Source: Podospora anserina
Lineage: Eukaryota
DNA: 64,000 nucleotides
Assembly (NCBI GenBank): GCA_017654855.1
Contig: CM030333.1
Span: 3,968,001-4,032,000 of the forward strand
Direction: 5' to 3'
Shown: one piece after another, positions 6,362 to 29,623 of the stretch
How the letters are laid out: each line of letters begins with the position of its first letter
How positions within the stretch are numbered: position 1 is the first letter of the stretch
The notes under the pieces: generated by a model
Database searches by the model: none
What the model was told of the DNA's origin: nothing
The model's input: only the letters and a program-made list of their open reading frames with translations
Translations under genes and position numbers: made by a program

Positions 6362-7032
6362 GCATTGGACACGGCGAAACATGAACACCCTTTTTCTTTT
6401 TCTCTTCGACATGACCGTTCTCCTCCGACCATAACGGAAACCATTATTTTCTGTTTGTTTGGTTACATCGCTTCTATTTTTTCTTTTGTCAGAGTACACA
6501 CACTCCCTCTACACAAGAGGGGTGAAGGGGGCAAATTGGTCTATCGGGGGTTTGGGAGGCATTGGGAAACATCAAAGGCGTTTGAGGTTTGGCTTGCTAG
6601 AGAGTTTTTGCTTTGACACTTTACTTTGCCAGACTACCCAAAAGAAATCGGGGGGAAAGGAAGGGGAGTTTTTTTACTGGGGAAAGATGATTACTACATG
6701 ATGGATTACACTTTTGCTTTTTTAGACACAGACAAAACAATTGATGGGTGGTGCATTATTGCTGCCGTATACATTATCTCTGTCTTTTTCTTTTTTGTTG
6801 GTGATTGTGTTACTGGCTGGTCTTGACCAGAGTGTTTGTTATCGAGGGTGGCGGTTTGACGTTTGACACATGGTACCGGGTTCTTCTCATGGCATTTTCA
6901 TCACCCCTTCCGGATACAGATAATCCACAGCTACAACTCTCAATCTCAATTTATAGACACATCACATCAACAGTACCTATCTTGTTACTTGTTTCAGCGC
7001 TAGAATCATTCTCATATTTTTCTCGACTAACT

Positions 7033-7053
7033 ACCACCACCACCACCACCACC
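7033..7053. repeat. (ACC)7 microsatellite in the RBG2 3' UTR
   Basis: Read directly. Confidence 0.85.
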
Positions 7054-7064
7054 ACGAAACGAAA

Positions 7065-8481
7065 CTAAGCCTTCCACCCACTGACAATATATACCACATC
7101 CTCATCGCAAACCGGATGACTCAACCCCACCCTCTGCGGTATATGCCTCGCGCTGGCGCCCCAAACGAGCGCATACTTGAACGTATCCTTCAGCGTCCTA
7201 TGAATCCTGTCACACACATCCTCGATGGTGCTATTACTCCTCACAATCAACGCCTCGCTAAAGTCGGGGTCGTTCCCCTTCCTCTTGGTGTAAATCCTGA
7301 CCAGGTTCAGCTCCTTCCAGCACCGGTCAATCACATCCTGGATGCCGAGGTCCAGCTCGCAAGACATGACAACCGTGTGGGGTTCCCGGGCGAGCTTGTC
7401 GAGGAAGTCGAGGGAGACGGAGTCGATCTTGTTGTAGACGTAGAGGCACTTGATGTACTTGCGGTGGTTGGCCATGATGACGTCGATGAGGTCGTCGACG
7501 GTACAGTTCTCGTCTCGGATGAGGACTTCGCAGTTGAGGATCTTGTAGTCGCGGAGGATGTTCATGATCATTTTTTCGTCGATTCCTTTGGGGGGGGATT
7601 GGAAGGTGATTTTCATGCCGCCGGCTTTTTTGGGTTTGAGGTAGATGTTACTAGGGACGGGGGGTTAGTGGGGGAGGGGGAGGAAATGGGGAGGAAAGGC
7701 GTACGGAGGTTCACGGTTGAGTCTGATGCCTACAGCTTCCAGCTCTGCTTCGAGAAGGGCGCGCTGTTCGGCTCTCTTGGTGGCGTCGAGGACCATGAGG
7801 ATGAGATCACTGGTTTTGGCGGCGGAGATGACTTGGCGGCCGCGGCCTTTGCCTTCGGAGGCACCTTCGATGATACCGGGTAGATCGAGGAGTTGGATCT
7901 CGGCACCGCCGTACTCGAGGACGCCGGGGATGGCGGTGAGGGTTGTGAAGGCATAGGAGGCCACTTCGGATTTGGTCTTGGTGACTTTGGAGAGGAAGGT
8001 CGATTTACCGACGGAGGGGAAGCCGACGAGGGCTATTCTGGCGTCGCCGGACTTGCTGACGTCGAAACCGGAGCCACCACCACCGCCGGCGCCCGGGCCG
8101 GGTTCGAGGAGTTGTGCGCGGAGACGGGCGAGTTTACTGGGGATGGTGTAAGTATGTAGGGGATGTGTTGAGGGGGAAGGGCCACTCACTTACCCCTTCA
8201 AGAGACCCAAGTGATATTCTAGGGTGAGTGTTAGATACTGTACGAATATGAGAGTGGTGAGGTATGAATTTACCAGTTGCCTTATTCTCTAGATATACCT
8301 GTTAGTGAGGTGTTGGGTGATAGACCAGGTGGTATGTACAAACTTTGAGTCTTCCTCATCTCATCCTCAATCCTATTTTATTTCACGATTCCGTCAGCCA
8401 GTCTGTGCTCACGAGACAACTGGATGAACATGATGATAAATGAGAGACTAACTCCTTGATCTTTTCCGTAATGTTCACCAT
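7065..8481 (-). CDS. RBG2: Developmentally regulated GTP-binding protein (DRG2/Rbg2), 6 exons including four 5' micro-exons
   Basis: Spliced N-terminus [36 protein letters not shown]; motifs [17 protein letters not shown] and NKID; C-terminal TGS domain. Confidence 0.93.
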
Positions 8482-23902: not shown

Positions 23903-25018
23903 TTATTTGCTGCGCTTGTAAATCTTGGCCAAGAAAGCTTCAAACACGCTCTTCTTGAGCCCCTCGGCCTCATCAATCTGGCCGATCCGCTCCCGGATCT
24001 CAGTGACAAACTTCTCCTCATAATCCTGGTAGCGCTGCTCAAGCTTGAGATCGTCATACAGCTTCTTGATGACCGTCTCTTTGGCCTTGTCCTTGCGGCC
24101 GTAGTTCTCCTCGAGGATCTTGCGCTGGTCGGGGGTGACAATGGCAAGAGCCTGGTTTACAAGCCAGGAGCACTTGTTGTCCATGATATCGGTGCCGATC
24201 TTGCCAATGTGCTCGGGAAGTCCAAAGTTGTCGAGGTAGTCGTCCTGGATCTGGAAGTACTCACCCAGAGGGATGAGGATGGACTCGGCCTGCTTGAGGT
24301 TGGCGGGGGTGGCGATGTCGAGGAGGAGCAAAGAGAGAGCGACGGGGAGGTAGAAGGAGTAATAGGCCGTCTTGTAGATGACGATGAAGCGGTACTTCTC
24401 CATGGAGAAGTTGTCGAGGTTGACGACGTCCTCGGGGGCGGTGAGGAGGTCGCAGAGCTGGCCCATCTCGGTCTGGAAGGTGACCTCGTGGAAGAGCTCG
24501 AGGAGGTCGACGTAGCGGGGGTGGTCGCGGAAGTACTTCTTGAGGAGGGTGTAGATGGCCGCCTCGAGCATGAAAGCGTCGTTGATGGCGACCATGCCGA
24601 CGCCCTCGTGGCGGTACCAGCAGGGCTTGCCGCGGCGGGTGATGGACGAGTCCATGATGTCGTCCGAGACGAGGAAGAAGGCCTGGAGGAGCTCGGTCAT
24701 CCAGCCGAGGGTGGCCGACTTGAAGTACTCATCTTCGGTGAGGGGGCGGCCGAGGAGGAGGGAGACGGAGTCGGGGACCGACATGCCGCGGTTGCACTTG
24801 CCGCCGACGGCATTGATCTCGAGGGACTGGGAGGAAAGGCATGTTAGTCTTGTTTACTTCGGCCAGCTTGATACATGGAACGGGAGGCCTACCTTCTTGT
24901 ACCAAGCGAGCTCCTTCTCGGGGAGATTGTACGACTTGGCATGCTCGAGTAGAACCTCCTCGAGCTTGGGGAAGACGGACTCGAATTCCTGGAGGGTGGT
25001 CTTTTGCGGCGCAGCCAT
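23903..25018 (-). CDS. ERG20: Farnesyl pyrophosphate synthase, 2 exons
   Basis: [27 protein letters not shown] (first aspartate-rich motif), FQIQDDYLD (second), terminal KIYKRSK. Intron at about 24828-24892. Confidence 0.96.
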
Positions 25019-25813
25019 CTTGTCTGGGGATCTCTGAAGAGACGAAGTGTTCACCGTCGGTCAGCTTGGGCCGCTATTCGGAAGGTTGGAGAAGATAGGG
25101 GTTCGGGGGAAGCAAGGCAGCGGGAGAGGTGCGGGGGGTGTGTTTCCTTACATATAAATTACAAGCGAAGGGGAAAGGGGCGGGCAGTTGCCGATTTACT
25201 GCCTGTTTGGGTATCACGGGAGAACAATAACAGATGACAAGGCGATTCTACCGATCAGGTACCACAAGTGACAAAGGTGGATATCAACAACTGGGCCGTT
25301 ACGTACTCGGCGGTTTCTCCCCAATTTCACGACCCCTCCTTGCCCCCCTTTGTTGTGGGGAGCTGCGATTATGGCGATAAGAGAACCCTGATGGCTCATT
25401 CGAGCAGGCGGTGAGCTGTTTTGCTGGCTGGCTGTCGTGCTGGCGGCGGGAAGTGGGGCTGGCAGATTTCCAAGGGACCAGGGGACAGGACAGGGGGAAA
25501 TGTCTTGGCGCTGTCTGTCGCGGTGGACCGAAGACAGACGCGTTCCTGTTGGGGGTTTCGTCATTGACAACTGCGCCTTGCTGTCACCCATAGGTTGCGA
25601 CGATATCCACGATTGCATTTTTGGCTTTAGATATTTGGCCGCCGTTATGCTTGATTGACAAACGCCTGGTTAACCGCCGTTTTGGGACCGATATCAAACA
25701 TATCTCCCCTCCCCATTTGGAGCTATTGTTTTGGTACATCCTAGCCAAGACAAGACCATTTAACAACACCCTCGTCACTGGAGGGGTTGCACCACAACCA
25801 CAAAGCAACCACC

Positions 25814-27868
25814 ATGGGCCTCTCTGCAAAGGATGCTTTGCAACTACGAGATACGCTGCAAATAGCAGTGGTAAAATGCTCCGAAAGATGTCTTTACCAC
25901 GCTGCCAAATGGTATTTGGTCCATCATGGCTACCTTTTTAAACACTTCATTCAACTAACACTCGGTGTACATAGGGCGGCCGAACTCCTCGATGCGCTTC
26001 CTCAACCATCTGCTGCCGACTTTAAAGCAACGCAAGACTTACCATCGTCTTACATTCATCCTGCTTTCACACCAAATCATGATCCTGCCGAAGCGGCTCT
26101 CGAAGCCAAGGAGCTCAGCCGTTACCTTCTCGCCAAATCGTTATTCGACTGCAAGGAGTTCGACAGATGTGCCGCCGTATTCCTTCCCGAGTCTTCATTG
26201 GCAGAGATGTTGGGGACAAAAGTAGACGATGCCACCACTACGGAAGGGAGCGAAAAGCAGAGGCCTTCGGTTGTTCTACCTTCGGAGAGAGCTTTACCTC
26301 AGATCAGCCAGAAAAGCTTATTTCTCGCGCTGTATGCCAAAATGATCTCGGGCGAGAAGCGAAAGGAGGAGGAATCTGAAATGATCATGGGGCCGCAAGA
26401 CTTGGGGACGATTACGAACAAACAGCTGGCCGTGGTCAGTCGGTTCCTCACAAAGTGGTTCGACCAGCGAAAGTCGGAGGGAGGCGATGTTGCGCCCAGC
26501 CAGGGCTTCCTCGAGTATCTCTACGGCATGGTTTTGGTGAAGGAGAAGAACGACAGGGCTGCTTTGCAGTATTTGGTTGAAAGTGTGCAACTATTTCCGT
26601 GGAACTGGGGTGCCTGGATGGAGATCACCAACCTCATCACCAGAGTTGAACAGCTGAACGAAGTAACACCAAAGCTACCCCAGAACATCATGTCTTTCAT
26701 CTTTCACGCCCATGCTTCGATCAACCTTTACCAGCAAGGCGGTGAGATCGCCAATGCTCTGAACGACTTGCTGGTCGTGTTCCCAACATCATCGTTCCTT
26801 CTAACCGACAAAGCACTGCTATATTATCACTCGAAAGATCTTGTAGCAGCCGAGCAAGAATTCAGTCAGCTACTTGGACTTCATCCCCAAAGGATAGATG
26901 CCCTGGACCATTATTCCAACATTTTATATGTTTTGAACCTCCGACCAAAGCTGGCCTTTTTGGCCCATCTATGCTCTAGCATTGATACGTTTCGTCCAGA
27001 GTCTTGCGTCGTCATTGGTAATTACTACTCCCTACTATCTTGCCACGACAAAGCAGTCCACTACTTCCGCCGGGCGCTCATGTTGGACCGCTCATGTCTT
27101 TCCGCGTGGACACTCATGGGGCATGAGTATGTAGAGTTGAAGAATACTCACGCAGCCATCGAATCCTACCGAAGAGCGGTAGACGTCAACCGGAGGGACT
27201 ACCGCGCCTGGTACGGCCTTGGCCAAACATATGAAGTACTCGAAATGCACGCGTATGCACTATGGTACTACAAGAAGGCCGCTGGTCTGCGTCCCTGGGA
27301 CGGCAAGATGTGGCAGGCGGTGGGTTCGTGCTTGCAAAAGATGGGCCGCGACAAAGACGGCATCAAGGCGCTCAAGAGAGCTCTGCTTGCGGATTCCTAC
27401 TACGATTCGTCAGCAAGTAGCTTTGGAAGCACAGGGACGATCGATCGGATGACGCAGATGGATCCTGAGGTCCTGCTGCAAATAGCGGCAATGTATGATC
27501 GGATGGAGGAAGAAGAGGAGGCCAAGGCGTACATGGAGTTGTGCGTTGCTCAGGAGGATGGCGGGGTTACCAATGATCAAGGACCAGGTCTAGGAGATTC
27601 CATCGGCGTCCGCGCTGATAGCCCCGGCTCAGATGATGGCGAAGGCGGAGGGGAAAGGGTGGCGGCTGCTGAGGGGACAGGGGTTACGGTGGCAACGAGC
27701 AAGGCCCGGATGTGGTTGGCGAAATATGCCATGAGGGTGGAGGACTACGAGACGGCGAATCGTCTCGCGACGGAGCTTTGCCAGGATGGCGTTGAGGTGG
27801 AGGAAGCCAAGGCGCTGATACGGGAAGCGAGGTCGAGGATGGAACAGACGAGTATGATGGAGAGCTAG
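25814..27868 (+). CDS. CDC23: Anaphase-promoting complex subunit 8 (Cdc23/Cut23), TPR protein
   Basis: CSERCLYHAAKW|AAELL, YLLAKSLFDCKEFDRCA, AWTLMGHEYVELKNTHAAIESYRRAVDVNRRDYRAWYGLGQ. In-frame 63-nt intron at 25912-25974; TAG stop (see findings). Confidence 0.95.
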   Translation: MGLSAKDALQLRDTLQIAVVKCSERCLYHAAKWYLVHHGYLFKHFIQLTLGVHRAAELLDALPQPSAADFKATQDLPSSYIHPAFTPNHDPAEAALEAKELSRYLLAKSLFDCKEFDRCAAVFLPESSLAEMLGTKVDDATTTEGSEKQRPSVVLPSERALPQISQKSLFLALYAKMISGEKRKEEESEMIMGPQDLGTITNKQLAVVSRFLTKWFDQRKSEGGDVAPSQGFLEYLYGMVLVKEKNDRAALQYLVESVQLFPWNWGAWMEITNLITRVEQLNEVTPKLPQNIMSFIFHAHASINLYQQGGEIANALNDLLVVFPTSSFLLTDKALLYYHSKDLVAAEQEFSQLLGLHPQRIDALDHYSNILYVLNLRPKLAFLAHLCSSIDTFRPESCVVIGNYYSLLSCHDKAVHYFRRALMLDRSCLSAWTLMGHEYVELKNTHAAIESYRRAVDVNRRDYRAWYGLGQTYEVLEMHAYALWYYKKAAGLRPWDGKMWQAVGSCLQKMGRDKDGIKALKRALLADSYYDSSASSFGSTGTIDRMTQMDPEVLLQIAAMYDRMEEEEEAKAYMELCVAQEDGGVTNDQGPGLGDSIGVRADSPGSDDGEGGGERVAAAEGTGVTVATSKARMWLAKYAMRVEDYETANRLATELCQDGVEVEEAKALIREARSRMEQTSMMES

Positions 27869-29623
27869 AGGCAGCAGTTGTCGCATCAGAAGTTCCTGGA
27901 GTTTGTGGAAGGTTTGAAGATGAGAGACAACACGAGATTTGCTCGTCGTGATCCTCGACAGCCTGCGATTGTGAGGTCTGGGCCGGGTCCGAGAGGCGCA
28001 AACCGAGAGGAAGAGGGAGAATGGTATTCGCAACTGGAGGATGATCTGAGTATGAGGAGGACTTCGTGGCGGTGAGTCTGTATGCGAGTGTAGATGTAAG
28101 CATCATTGTTTCCATCACTATCGACGGTTGGTTGAGCCACACGATGAGTTCGATAAACAACGCAATTCGATACCCTGTTTTAATGGCATAGCTTTCCTCC
28201 AGCTTCTGCTCTAGGTACACCTGTGCTTCACTATGGTGATGGTCACAAACATGAAACTGGTGGCTGGCAAATGTTGGCGCTCGGTGTCTCCGCTTGCGTG
28301 TTGGCAGTTGGGTTTCCGTTGCCTTCACTCCTTTTGTTGCGATTCCGACCTTCGCTTACCCCCCAGATCTTCACAAGACATGCGGTTCTCGCGTTGCGTA
28401 CAAGCTTCGTCTCGGGGTGAGACATCCTGCACTGTCCTACGCACAGTCATGATGACCAAGAGAACATCATCAATGCTTGCAAACCAGCTCAAGACGGGAG
28501 TGGGGGTACAAGGTGATATCCAATTCTCCCATGTAGTTGAATTCGGCCAACCTCAAGCTTAGCATCGCCGTCCTCGTGGGGCCTTCTAGGAATACAAAGC
28601 CCCTGCCTCCCGGTGTCACATCCCGCGATTAAATTCCCGGAGCCGCCTTGGCGAGACCAGATTTAGTGTACGGGTGGCAGGGCTGAACTCCAGCTCTGGA
28701 ACATGTTCTTGTTCTGACTTGGTACGAGGAAGCTTTGCGTGAAATGAAAACCAGCATCTATGATCGATACTTGGGGTTTGAGCAAGCAGTTTTTTGCAAT
28801 CACTATTCTGTGTGGCTGTTTCTTATCTACAACATGTACCACAACCTAACAATACCGACAAGGCTGCAGTACTTTCCGCCGCCGGTGCCGCTCGCCGAGC
28901 TCCAACCCTCCCAGCGTCGGTTTATCAAACATATCTCCAAATCTGGACCGCGGAATTGACTTCTTCACATGGCGTGACGATGCGAGTTCCGACCTGTGTG
29001 CCAGCCATTACCAGCCGCCTCGACCTGTGAGAGCTGAACACGACCATACCTACCCCTCAAGGCGTGCGTGGGCTGCCATGTGCATACATTCAATGTTCCA
29101 TGCAACCAGGCACACCAATGGCGGATGAGGCGTTCCTGGACCTAGTCCGTCTGCACCACGGATAGAACCGCCCAGTCAGGGGAGACTGGGCTCTCCACCT
29201 TACATAGTTCCCCCCAACCACCACGCAGCCACACCACACTTGATCCAAAGTTGGAGGTGTGTGTGTCTCTTATCTCTGTGCTCTGCTGCTGTCTTGGTGT
29301 GGGCGTACCGCCTAACCTCCCGAGAAGGGGGAAGATCTCCGGGTGTTAGCTTTCAGGAACACCTTCCTGCTCCTCTGGGATAGGCAGCCTTGCGAGTAGT
29401 TGAAACTGAAAAGTTGGCTGACTTTGCATACAGTGTACGTCCAAAGACAGCCTGCCTCCATGATCAAACACCAGAAGCTTACGAATGTGATGGCGGTTGG
29501 TCTGCACTGGGGACGCCCCCTTTCACACCGCGATGCGAGAACAATTGCTTTTCTTCGGCAGTCGAGCGGGGAGGGGAAATGGCTGGGTTGTCTGTGGGTT
29601 TGCTCAAGAAGCCTCGGGGATGG

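Follow-up and report, generated by a model that had tools for sequence, protein, structure and literature searches.

The stop codon of CDC23 (APC8), the gene for anaphase-promoting complex/cyclosome (APC/C) subunit 8, is probably a conserved stop-loss recoding site in Podospora, at which translation would continue into a C-terminal tail, most likely through sexual-stage adenosine-to-inosine (A-to-I) editing of the mRNA. The gene lies on the plus strand of a 64,000-nucleotide (nt) stretch of Podospora anserina DNA (contig CM030333.1, positions 3,968,001 to 4,032,000), referred to here as the window, in whose numbering all coordinates are given. Its coding sequence (CDS) ends ...MEQTSMMES and is closed by TAG at 27866–27868; the same frame then stays open for 68 codons (27869–28072; RQQLSHQKFLEF...MRRTSWR) before a second in-frame stop, TGA, at 28073–28075. 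The original prediction had drawn attention to this arrangement (ATG ATG GAG AGC TAG followed by 68 open codons), and its coordinates (27866–28075), the peptide that it quoted and the AGC-TAG-AGG context that it gave for the stop all proved to be exact. Among stop codons, TAG alone becomes a sense codon through A-to-I editing, and the candidate site is the A at 27867 (UAG to UIG, read as Trp); a product read through to the TGA would have 663 + 1 + 68 = 732 residues.

The RNA data consisted of assembled contigs of four runs (X3, X6, X8 and X11) from four studies. These reach 28187, 28202, 28325 and 28547, which places the whole tail inside the Podospora mRNA and leaves 28076–28547 as the rest of the 3′ untranslated region, the contig ends not being mapped poly(A) sites. 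Judged from the window alone, the length of the open frame is nevertheless within chance: the probability of at least 68 open codons calculated from composition is P = 0.028–0.048, 10.5% of the 4060 stop-to-stop intervals in the 64-kb window are at least 68 codons long, and 4 of the 41 intervals that lie behind long open reading frames (ORFs) in the window reach that length. The case rests on the relatives.

Stop codon and tail in related fungi

A scan of metagenome contigs yielded 59 loci encoding CDC23 orthologues, six of which lack the C-terminus and one of which extends beyond the end of its contig; together with the window, the remaining 52 comprise 39 distinct sequences. Two loci with an aberrant C-terminal match (L055, TAG; L057, TGA) were excluded, a quick tree was built with named anchor proteins, and near-identical sequences were collapsed to give 13 lineages. 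All 16 distinct sequences with TAG plus a tail fell into one clade (31 rows, Shimodaira–Hasegawa-like approximate likelihood ratio test support 91), made up of Sordariales, a Coniochaeta-like sequence, L009 and L027. TAG is used in 13 of 13 lineages of this clade (16 of 16 distinct sequences) but in only 2 of 21 distinct sequences outside it (Fisher P = 1.1e-7); of two Xylariales-like loci there, one has TGA and one TAA, and in the more distant fungi the stop is TGA (13), TAA (4) or TAG (2). Counted in frame, the open run behind the TAG reaches a median of 48 codons in the 13 lineages; the other two frames give medians of 10 and 26 (Wilcoxon P = 0.013 and 0.006), and the open run after the stop outside the clade has a median of 7 codons (Mann–Whitney P = 1e-4). 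Markov simulations on the downstream composition of each locus gave a Fisher-combined P of 0.007 (0.023 with the window left out). Of the 15 complete clade tails, 11 have TGA as their second stop. In the comparison across species that the original prediction had proposed, both the TAG and the open frame were conserved across the Sordariales and Coniochaeta-like lineages. At the protein level, an alignment of 25 orthologues showed that most Sordariales proteins terminate at the column where the Podospora protein ends in ...MMES. An antisense gene was considered as the cause of the open frame and rejected, as none of the antisense frames stays open throughout the lineages; the one whose third positions coincide has one stop in the window, seven in L002 and three in L019.

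Selection tests were applied to the tails of Chaetomiaceae-like and Lasiosphaeriaceae/Naviculisporaceae-like relatives. In the Chaetomiaceae-like sequences L003, L056, L004, L005 and L021 the DNA can be aligned from the TAG to a shared TGA with indels of only 3 and 6 nt, and the alignment collapses directly after that TGA. The ratio of nonsynonymous to synonymous substitution rates (dN/dS) in these tails is 0.05–0.28, and the changes at the first, second and third codon positions number 3/3/14 and 10/6/24 in two pairs. Synonymous changes account for 17 of 20 between L004 and L005 (P = 1.6e-7) and for 18 of 40 between L003 and L056 (P = 0.004), two pairs that share no branch. In four Lasiosphaeriaceae/Naviculisporaceae-like lineages the TAG is immediately followed by the motif [KR]PPxLQF.., synonymous differences being numerous, and the ratio of nonsynonymous to synonymous differences per site (pN/pS) is 0.34–0.62 in frame compared with 0.46–1.02 and 0.95–3.4 in the shifted frames. 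By these patterns of substitution, the tail evolves as coding sequence in at least two subclades. A further Chaetomiaceae-like tail (L002:4650–4886) has an in-frame histidine insertion, a run of eight His in an H-rich stretch, and despite this has the same end as its relatives, ..SRQSS..L..RG.

A search among longer proteins revealed two kinds of CDC23 model in Neurospora and Sordaria. Short models (P0263 and P0264; 671–673 amino acids (aa)) end ...IREVRSRMELADLTER, an end also written ...VRSRMELADLTER, and the current N. crassa and S. macrospora models terminate at ...TER. In seven long models (P0145, P0266–P0269, P0275 and P0276; 757–797 aa) ...ALIRE is joined to a tail, which in the five from Neurospora is 109–114 aa long and starts [KR]PPSLAFP ([KR]PPSLAFPNIEEY); the two Sordaria long models enter the tail 12 residues later, at YLPSAAR (98 aa). 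Identity between tails is 72/97 for S. macrospora and N. crassa and 92/109 for N. tetraspora and N. crassa. The Neurospora long models drop 13 codons plus the stop, a piece of 42 nt in which the GT of a Val codon comes first and AG necessarily last; going by the proteins, these GT..AG ends imply a TAG stop and a pseudo-intron placed over it by the gene predictor. The KPPSL-type start of the Sordariaceae tails is the motif of the four Lasiosphaeriaceae/Naviculisporaceae-like lineages and suggests that in Sordariaceae it likewise follows the TAG; there too the tail is long and conserved. A read-through tail would thus explain a mismatch of about 85–125 residues in the annotation of Neurospora and Sordaria CDC23. 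In the S. macrospora k-hell model the apparent pseudo-intron is longer than the 42 nt of Neurospora.

Context of the TAG and competing explanations

The nucleotides preferred around edited sites in Fusarium graminearum, as set out in PMC9600606, are C/U at −2, U at −1, A/G at +1, G at +2, A/G at +3 and A/G at +4, with +2 rated the least important flanking position. The window TAG agrees with five of these six preferences, the exception being +2. Agreement at five of six positions is found in 12 of 13 lineages, including the window, as against 9 of 26 other nearby TAG trinucleotides. In 12 of the 13 lineages the A of the TAG is predicted to fall within a hairpin loop; the corresponding figures are 38% for shuffled flanks (binomial P = 9e-5), 9 of 23 for other UAGs and 7 of 20 for stops outside the clade. 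It should be noted that in the published data hairpin-loop placement of the edited A is a preference, seen at about 62% of sites. In the window a local stem-loop is predicted at 27855–27888, in the minimum-energy fold of which A27867 forms a bulge of a single base next to an apical loop of 6 nt. None of 1000 sampled structures pairs A27867 (hairpin loop in 39%, bulge in 61%), and the local fold as such is no better than that of shuffled sequences (z = −1.0 over 61 nt and +1.05 over 31 nt). Sexual-stage mRNA editing is documented in other Sordariales and a P. anserina preprint names ADAT genes regulated during sexual development; no P. anserina editing catalogue was among the literature matches listed. 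The core of the original prediction, a TAG that serves as a recoding site for a longer Apc8, has strong indirect support from the relatives: their TAG is conserved, the run behind it is longer in frame, the tail is under purifying selection in one clade and has a motif in common, and both the flanking sequence and the hairpins are of the kind seen at edited sites. The A>G change expected of an edited transcript did not appear in the contigs of the four runs.

Several observations weigh against editing at the Podospora site and are brought together here. The RNA contigs of X3, X6, X8 and X11, whose stage is undocumented and which record the majority letter only, all have A at 27867, a reading that carries little weight in either direction. 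Podospora is the sole lineage of the 13 in which the A lies outside a hairpin loop in the minimum-energy fold, and RNAalifold on the 13 lineages returned 0 consensus pairs, with no covarying stem in common. The tree was built by a quick method, and independence among the 13 lineages is incomplete. No protein with a tail continuous from the canonical C-terminus was found with a 114-residue Podospora query among the matches listed (120 of 172), which cover at most 46%, or with the read-through C-terminus of L004, for which all 33 matches cover at most 39%. The Podospora tail peptide gave 0 matches in 1.84 billion representative proteins. It has no significant sequence similarity to the tails of other lineages, ranking 218th among the peptides of the window when these were scored with a profile built from the first 22 residues of the orthologous tails. 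Finally, the coding-like composition claimed for the tail was borne out in one respect, as it is G-rich and T-poor (G 37%, T 21%), and failed in another, as its third codon positions are unlike those of the CDS (C 7% compared with 29%).

The main rival explanation, which we consider unlikely, is that the tail is functional in other Sordariales and that in Podospora it is a decaying or neutral remnant, the TAG being a plain stop and the open codons a matter of chance or inertia. The within-chance length of the frame, the low rank against the first-22-residue profile, the bulged position of A27867, the third-position composition and the A in all RNA contigs are in keeping with such decay, and so is the replacement of the PP of the relatives' motif by QQ in the Podospora tail. 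However, Podospora has kept the TAG, five of the six flanking preferences and a 68-codon frame that is longer than the clade median of 48, and had the TAG been neutral, drift to TAA or TGA, such as has occurred outside the clade, would have been expected. The layout of the tail has also been kept: it has a hydrophobic start (RQQLSHQKFLEFVEGL), a basic stretch (..RFARRDPRQ..) and an acidic/aromatic cluster (EEEGEWYSQLEDD), three parts that are common to the tails of other lineages even where similarity in sequence is weak. Against the full-length profile of orthologous tails the Podospora tail ranked 3 of 2244 window peptides, with a score of only 4.8 bits (E 5.8).

Programmed translational readthrough of the UAG by a near-cognate tRNA, with no RNA editing, seems quite improbable. 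It resembles stop-loss editing in producing a C-terminally extended isoform from one mRNA, and the open frame, dN/dS values and in-frame indels indicate translation of the tail and not the mechanism behind it; the lack of edited RNA among the contigs also suits it. Readthrough, however, needs neither a TAG nor an editing-type context, yet TAG is fixed in all 13 lineages, and a leaky context is UGA or UAG followed by C or by CAR-YYA, whereas the base after the CDC23 stop is A in 9 lineages, C in 3 and G in 1. The fixed TAG, the matching flanking nucleotides, the hairpin loops and the occurrence of all this in a clade with documented sexual-stage editing fit editing better. That the stop is bypassed by splicing, as in the long Neurospora and Sordaria models, is hardly credible and was rejected, since, although seven annotated models do join ...ALIRE to the tail, the 42-nt Neurospora piece looks like a gene-predictor device (again from the proteins), the models now current for N. 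crassa and S. macrospora stop at ...TER, four Podospora contigs from four studies are unspliced across 27293–28187, and coding constraint in the Chaetomiaceae-like tails begins at the codon directly after the TAG.

A wider version of the editing proposal is put forward only tentatively. The tail may be an ancient APC/C module, maintained by selection and used in the sexual stage only, with the TAG held through the history of the Sordariales and Coniochaetales as a switch between a short vegetative and a long meiotic or ascospore form of Apc8. The tail might then derive from a longer ancestral C-terminus, which would make the edit a restorative one; such a descent is suggested by proteins of the Magnaporthales, which run past the stop position and end ..RG like Chaetomiaceae-like tails. 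If this is true, the CDC23 stop would rank with the oldest stop-loss sites that have been conserved, and it would serve as a clean test case for the dispute over whether such edits are adaptive. The Cdc23 proteins of Remersonia, Mycothermus, Pyricularia and Gaeumannomyces (P0148, P0116, P0150 and P0151) extend 12–20 residues beyond the Sordariales stop and end ..SRG, ..PRG, ..ARG and ..QRG, and the Chaetomiaceae-like tails end ..PRG, ..WRG and ..SQG. This likeness may hint that the tail goes back to a longer C-terminus of earlier date, or it may have arisen by chance.

Proposed role of the tail and known recoding systems

As we envisage it, the recoding site would be conserved across the Sordariales and probably the Coniochaetales, the Podospora TAG being the local copy. 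The ordinary 663-aa protein would terminate at the TAG; in some cells the stop would become a sense codon and translation would go on for 68 codons to the TGA, giving a 732-aa Apc8 whose extra part would consist of a short helical start, a basic stretch and an acidic/aromatic, mostly disordered end. The mechanism would most likely be the sexual-stage A-to-I mRNA editing known in Sordariomycetes, which would convert UAG to UIG and insert Trp. By analogy with FgDbf2, the tail may alter the stability, dosage or regulation of Apc8 while asci and ascospores develop. AlphaFold2 was run on a 753-residue read-through translation that includes the in-frame intron, and the model was poor (mean predicted local distance difference test score (pLDDT) 61, predicted template modelling score 0.42); in it the last helix extends about 22 residues into the tail, to about residue 707, with pLDDT about 70, and the remaining tail is below 50. 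Disorder-promoting residues make up 51–77% of the tails as against 45% of the protein body, and no Pfam family was found in the Podospora tail.

Two more specific ideas about the tail, that it begins with a destruction box (D-box) and ends like the tails that dock on TPR subunits, gained no support. The full form of the D-box is RxxLxxxxN; RxxL occurs at tail position 1 only in the window and in L027 (2 of 13), and the ninth residue in the window is F, not N. A docking tail ends in Ile-Arg, and no CDC23 tail does. The ends of the 12 complete tails are WR, PR, EI, DL, GE, IE, RG, QG, RG, MR, IT and FR, of which three are a hydrophobic residue followed by Arg.

Stop-loss editing has been reported for 323–403 genes in F. 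graminearum and for 47 sites in S. macrospora protoperithecia. The closest parallel to CDC23 is FgDBF2, where the tail acts as a destabilizing element and reduces the dosage of the kinase while ascospores form (Du et al. 2026, PMC13123824), and the extensions tested in Sordariomycetes destabilize proteins. The comparative signature used for FgDBF2 was a conserved hairpin-embedded TAG, a bias towards TAG and long disordered tails (PMC13123824), and CDC23 resembles it in having the TAG stop of a conserved cell-cycle regulator, the TAG bias in Sordariomycetes, a predicted placement of the A in a hairpin (in 12 of 13 lineages, Podospora being the exception) and a tail that is longer than usual, largely disordered and of low sequence conservation between distant species. 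The two differ in that FgDBF2 is a kinase with observed editing, whereas Apc8 is a scaffold subunit of the APC/C with a candidate site known from sequence. They differ also in that the conservation documented at CDC23 spans the Sordariales and Coniochaeta-like lineages, with TGA and TAA in two Xylariales-like sequences, and that the CDC23 tail is under sequence-specific and not only compositional constraint in at least two subclades. In S. macrospora 15 stop-loss transcripts have peptide evidence, white collar 1 among them (Blank-Landeshammer et al. 2019, PMC6794485). These cases belong to the same fungal order and involve the same UAG-to-Trp recoding that adds a C-terminal extension, but they have peptides, and CDC23 is not named in the main text of PMC6794485.

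Restorative editing, as in PUK1 and FgAMA1, is a further parallel, having an in-frame UAG in a conserved frame that is read as Trp only in the sexual stage (PMC4817773, PMC11156358). The APC/C activator AMA1 of F. graminearum requires editing of a premature stop (PMC4817773, PMC11156358), and APC/C regulation is thus already a target of such editing. Unlike PUK1 and FgAMA1, CDC23 is not pseudogene-like, because the short Apc8 is complete and conserved, with all its TPR domains before the stop. Among fungal papers, none was found that ties CDC23 or APC8 to editing in its main text, and supplementary site lists may include the CDC23 stop. Hundreds of stop-loss edits have been catalogued in Sordariomycetes, with functional analysis found in the main texts for DBF2 only, and their adaptiveness is disputed (PMC13684035 versus PMC13684032). 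An order-wide TAG with a tail under purifying selection, in an essential scaffold subunit of the APC/C, could help to settle that question gene by gene. Together with the known editing of AMA1, the CDC23 site would also tie RNA editing to the core of the cell-cycle machinery at work in meiosis and in the formation of ascospores.

Gene structure and other observations in the window

The source of the gene is a member of the Podospora anserina complex, and the C-terminus of its Apc8 is 100% identical to that of Podospora comata Apc8 (663 aa). The gene has the architecture of APC/C subunit 8, an N-terminal ANAPC8 domain (PF04049, E 2.2e-106, residues 10–334) followed by TPR repeats (TPR_1, TPR_2 and TPR_8), and its orthologues in the protein collection carry the names Apc8 or Cdc23. 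Exon 1 (plus strand, 25814–25911, with the ATG at 25814) is separated from exon 2 (25975–27865) by a 63-nt intron at 25912–25974. This intron is in frame and stop-free, with GT..AG ends, and is spliced out in all three RNA contigs that cover it (X3, X6 and X8). The spliced product has 663 aa, in agreement with database models P0002 and P0127, which splice the intron; the 684-aa model P0122, equal to the window ORF, retains it.

Three positions at which all covering RNA contigs differ from the window, at full depth and in several studies, are A>G at 26890, T>A at 29397 and A>C at 29444. The first is synonymous (CAA>CAG) and has A at −1, and all three look like strain or assembly differences and not editing. 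Another putative gene in the window, a 308-codon ORF on the plus strand (6957–7883), ends in TAG followed by 91 open in-frame codons and has no Pfam family; Pfam searches of two neighbouring ORFs gave no match. Directly upstream of CDC23, at 25000–25300, lies a highly covered transcript (contig depth 53–673), in which a 118-nt joint at 25034–25151 has CT..AC ends and is thus an intron of a gene on the minus strand.

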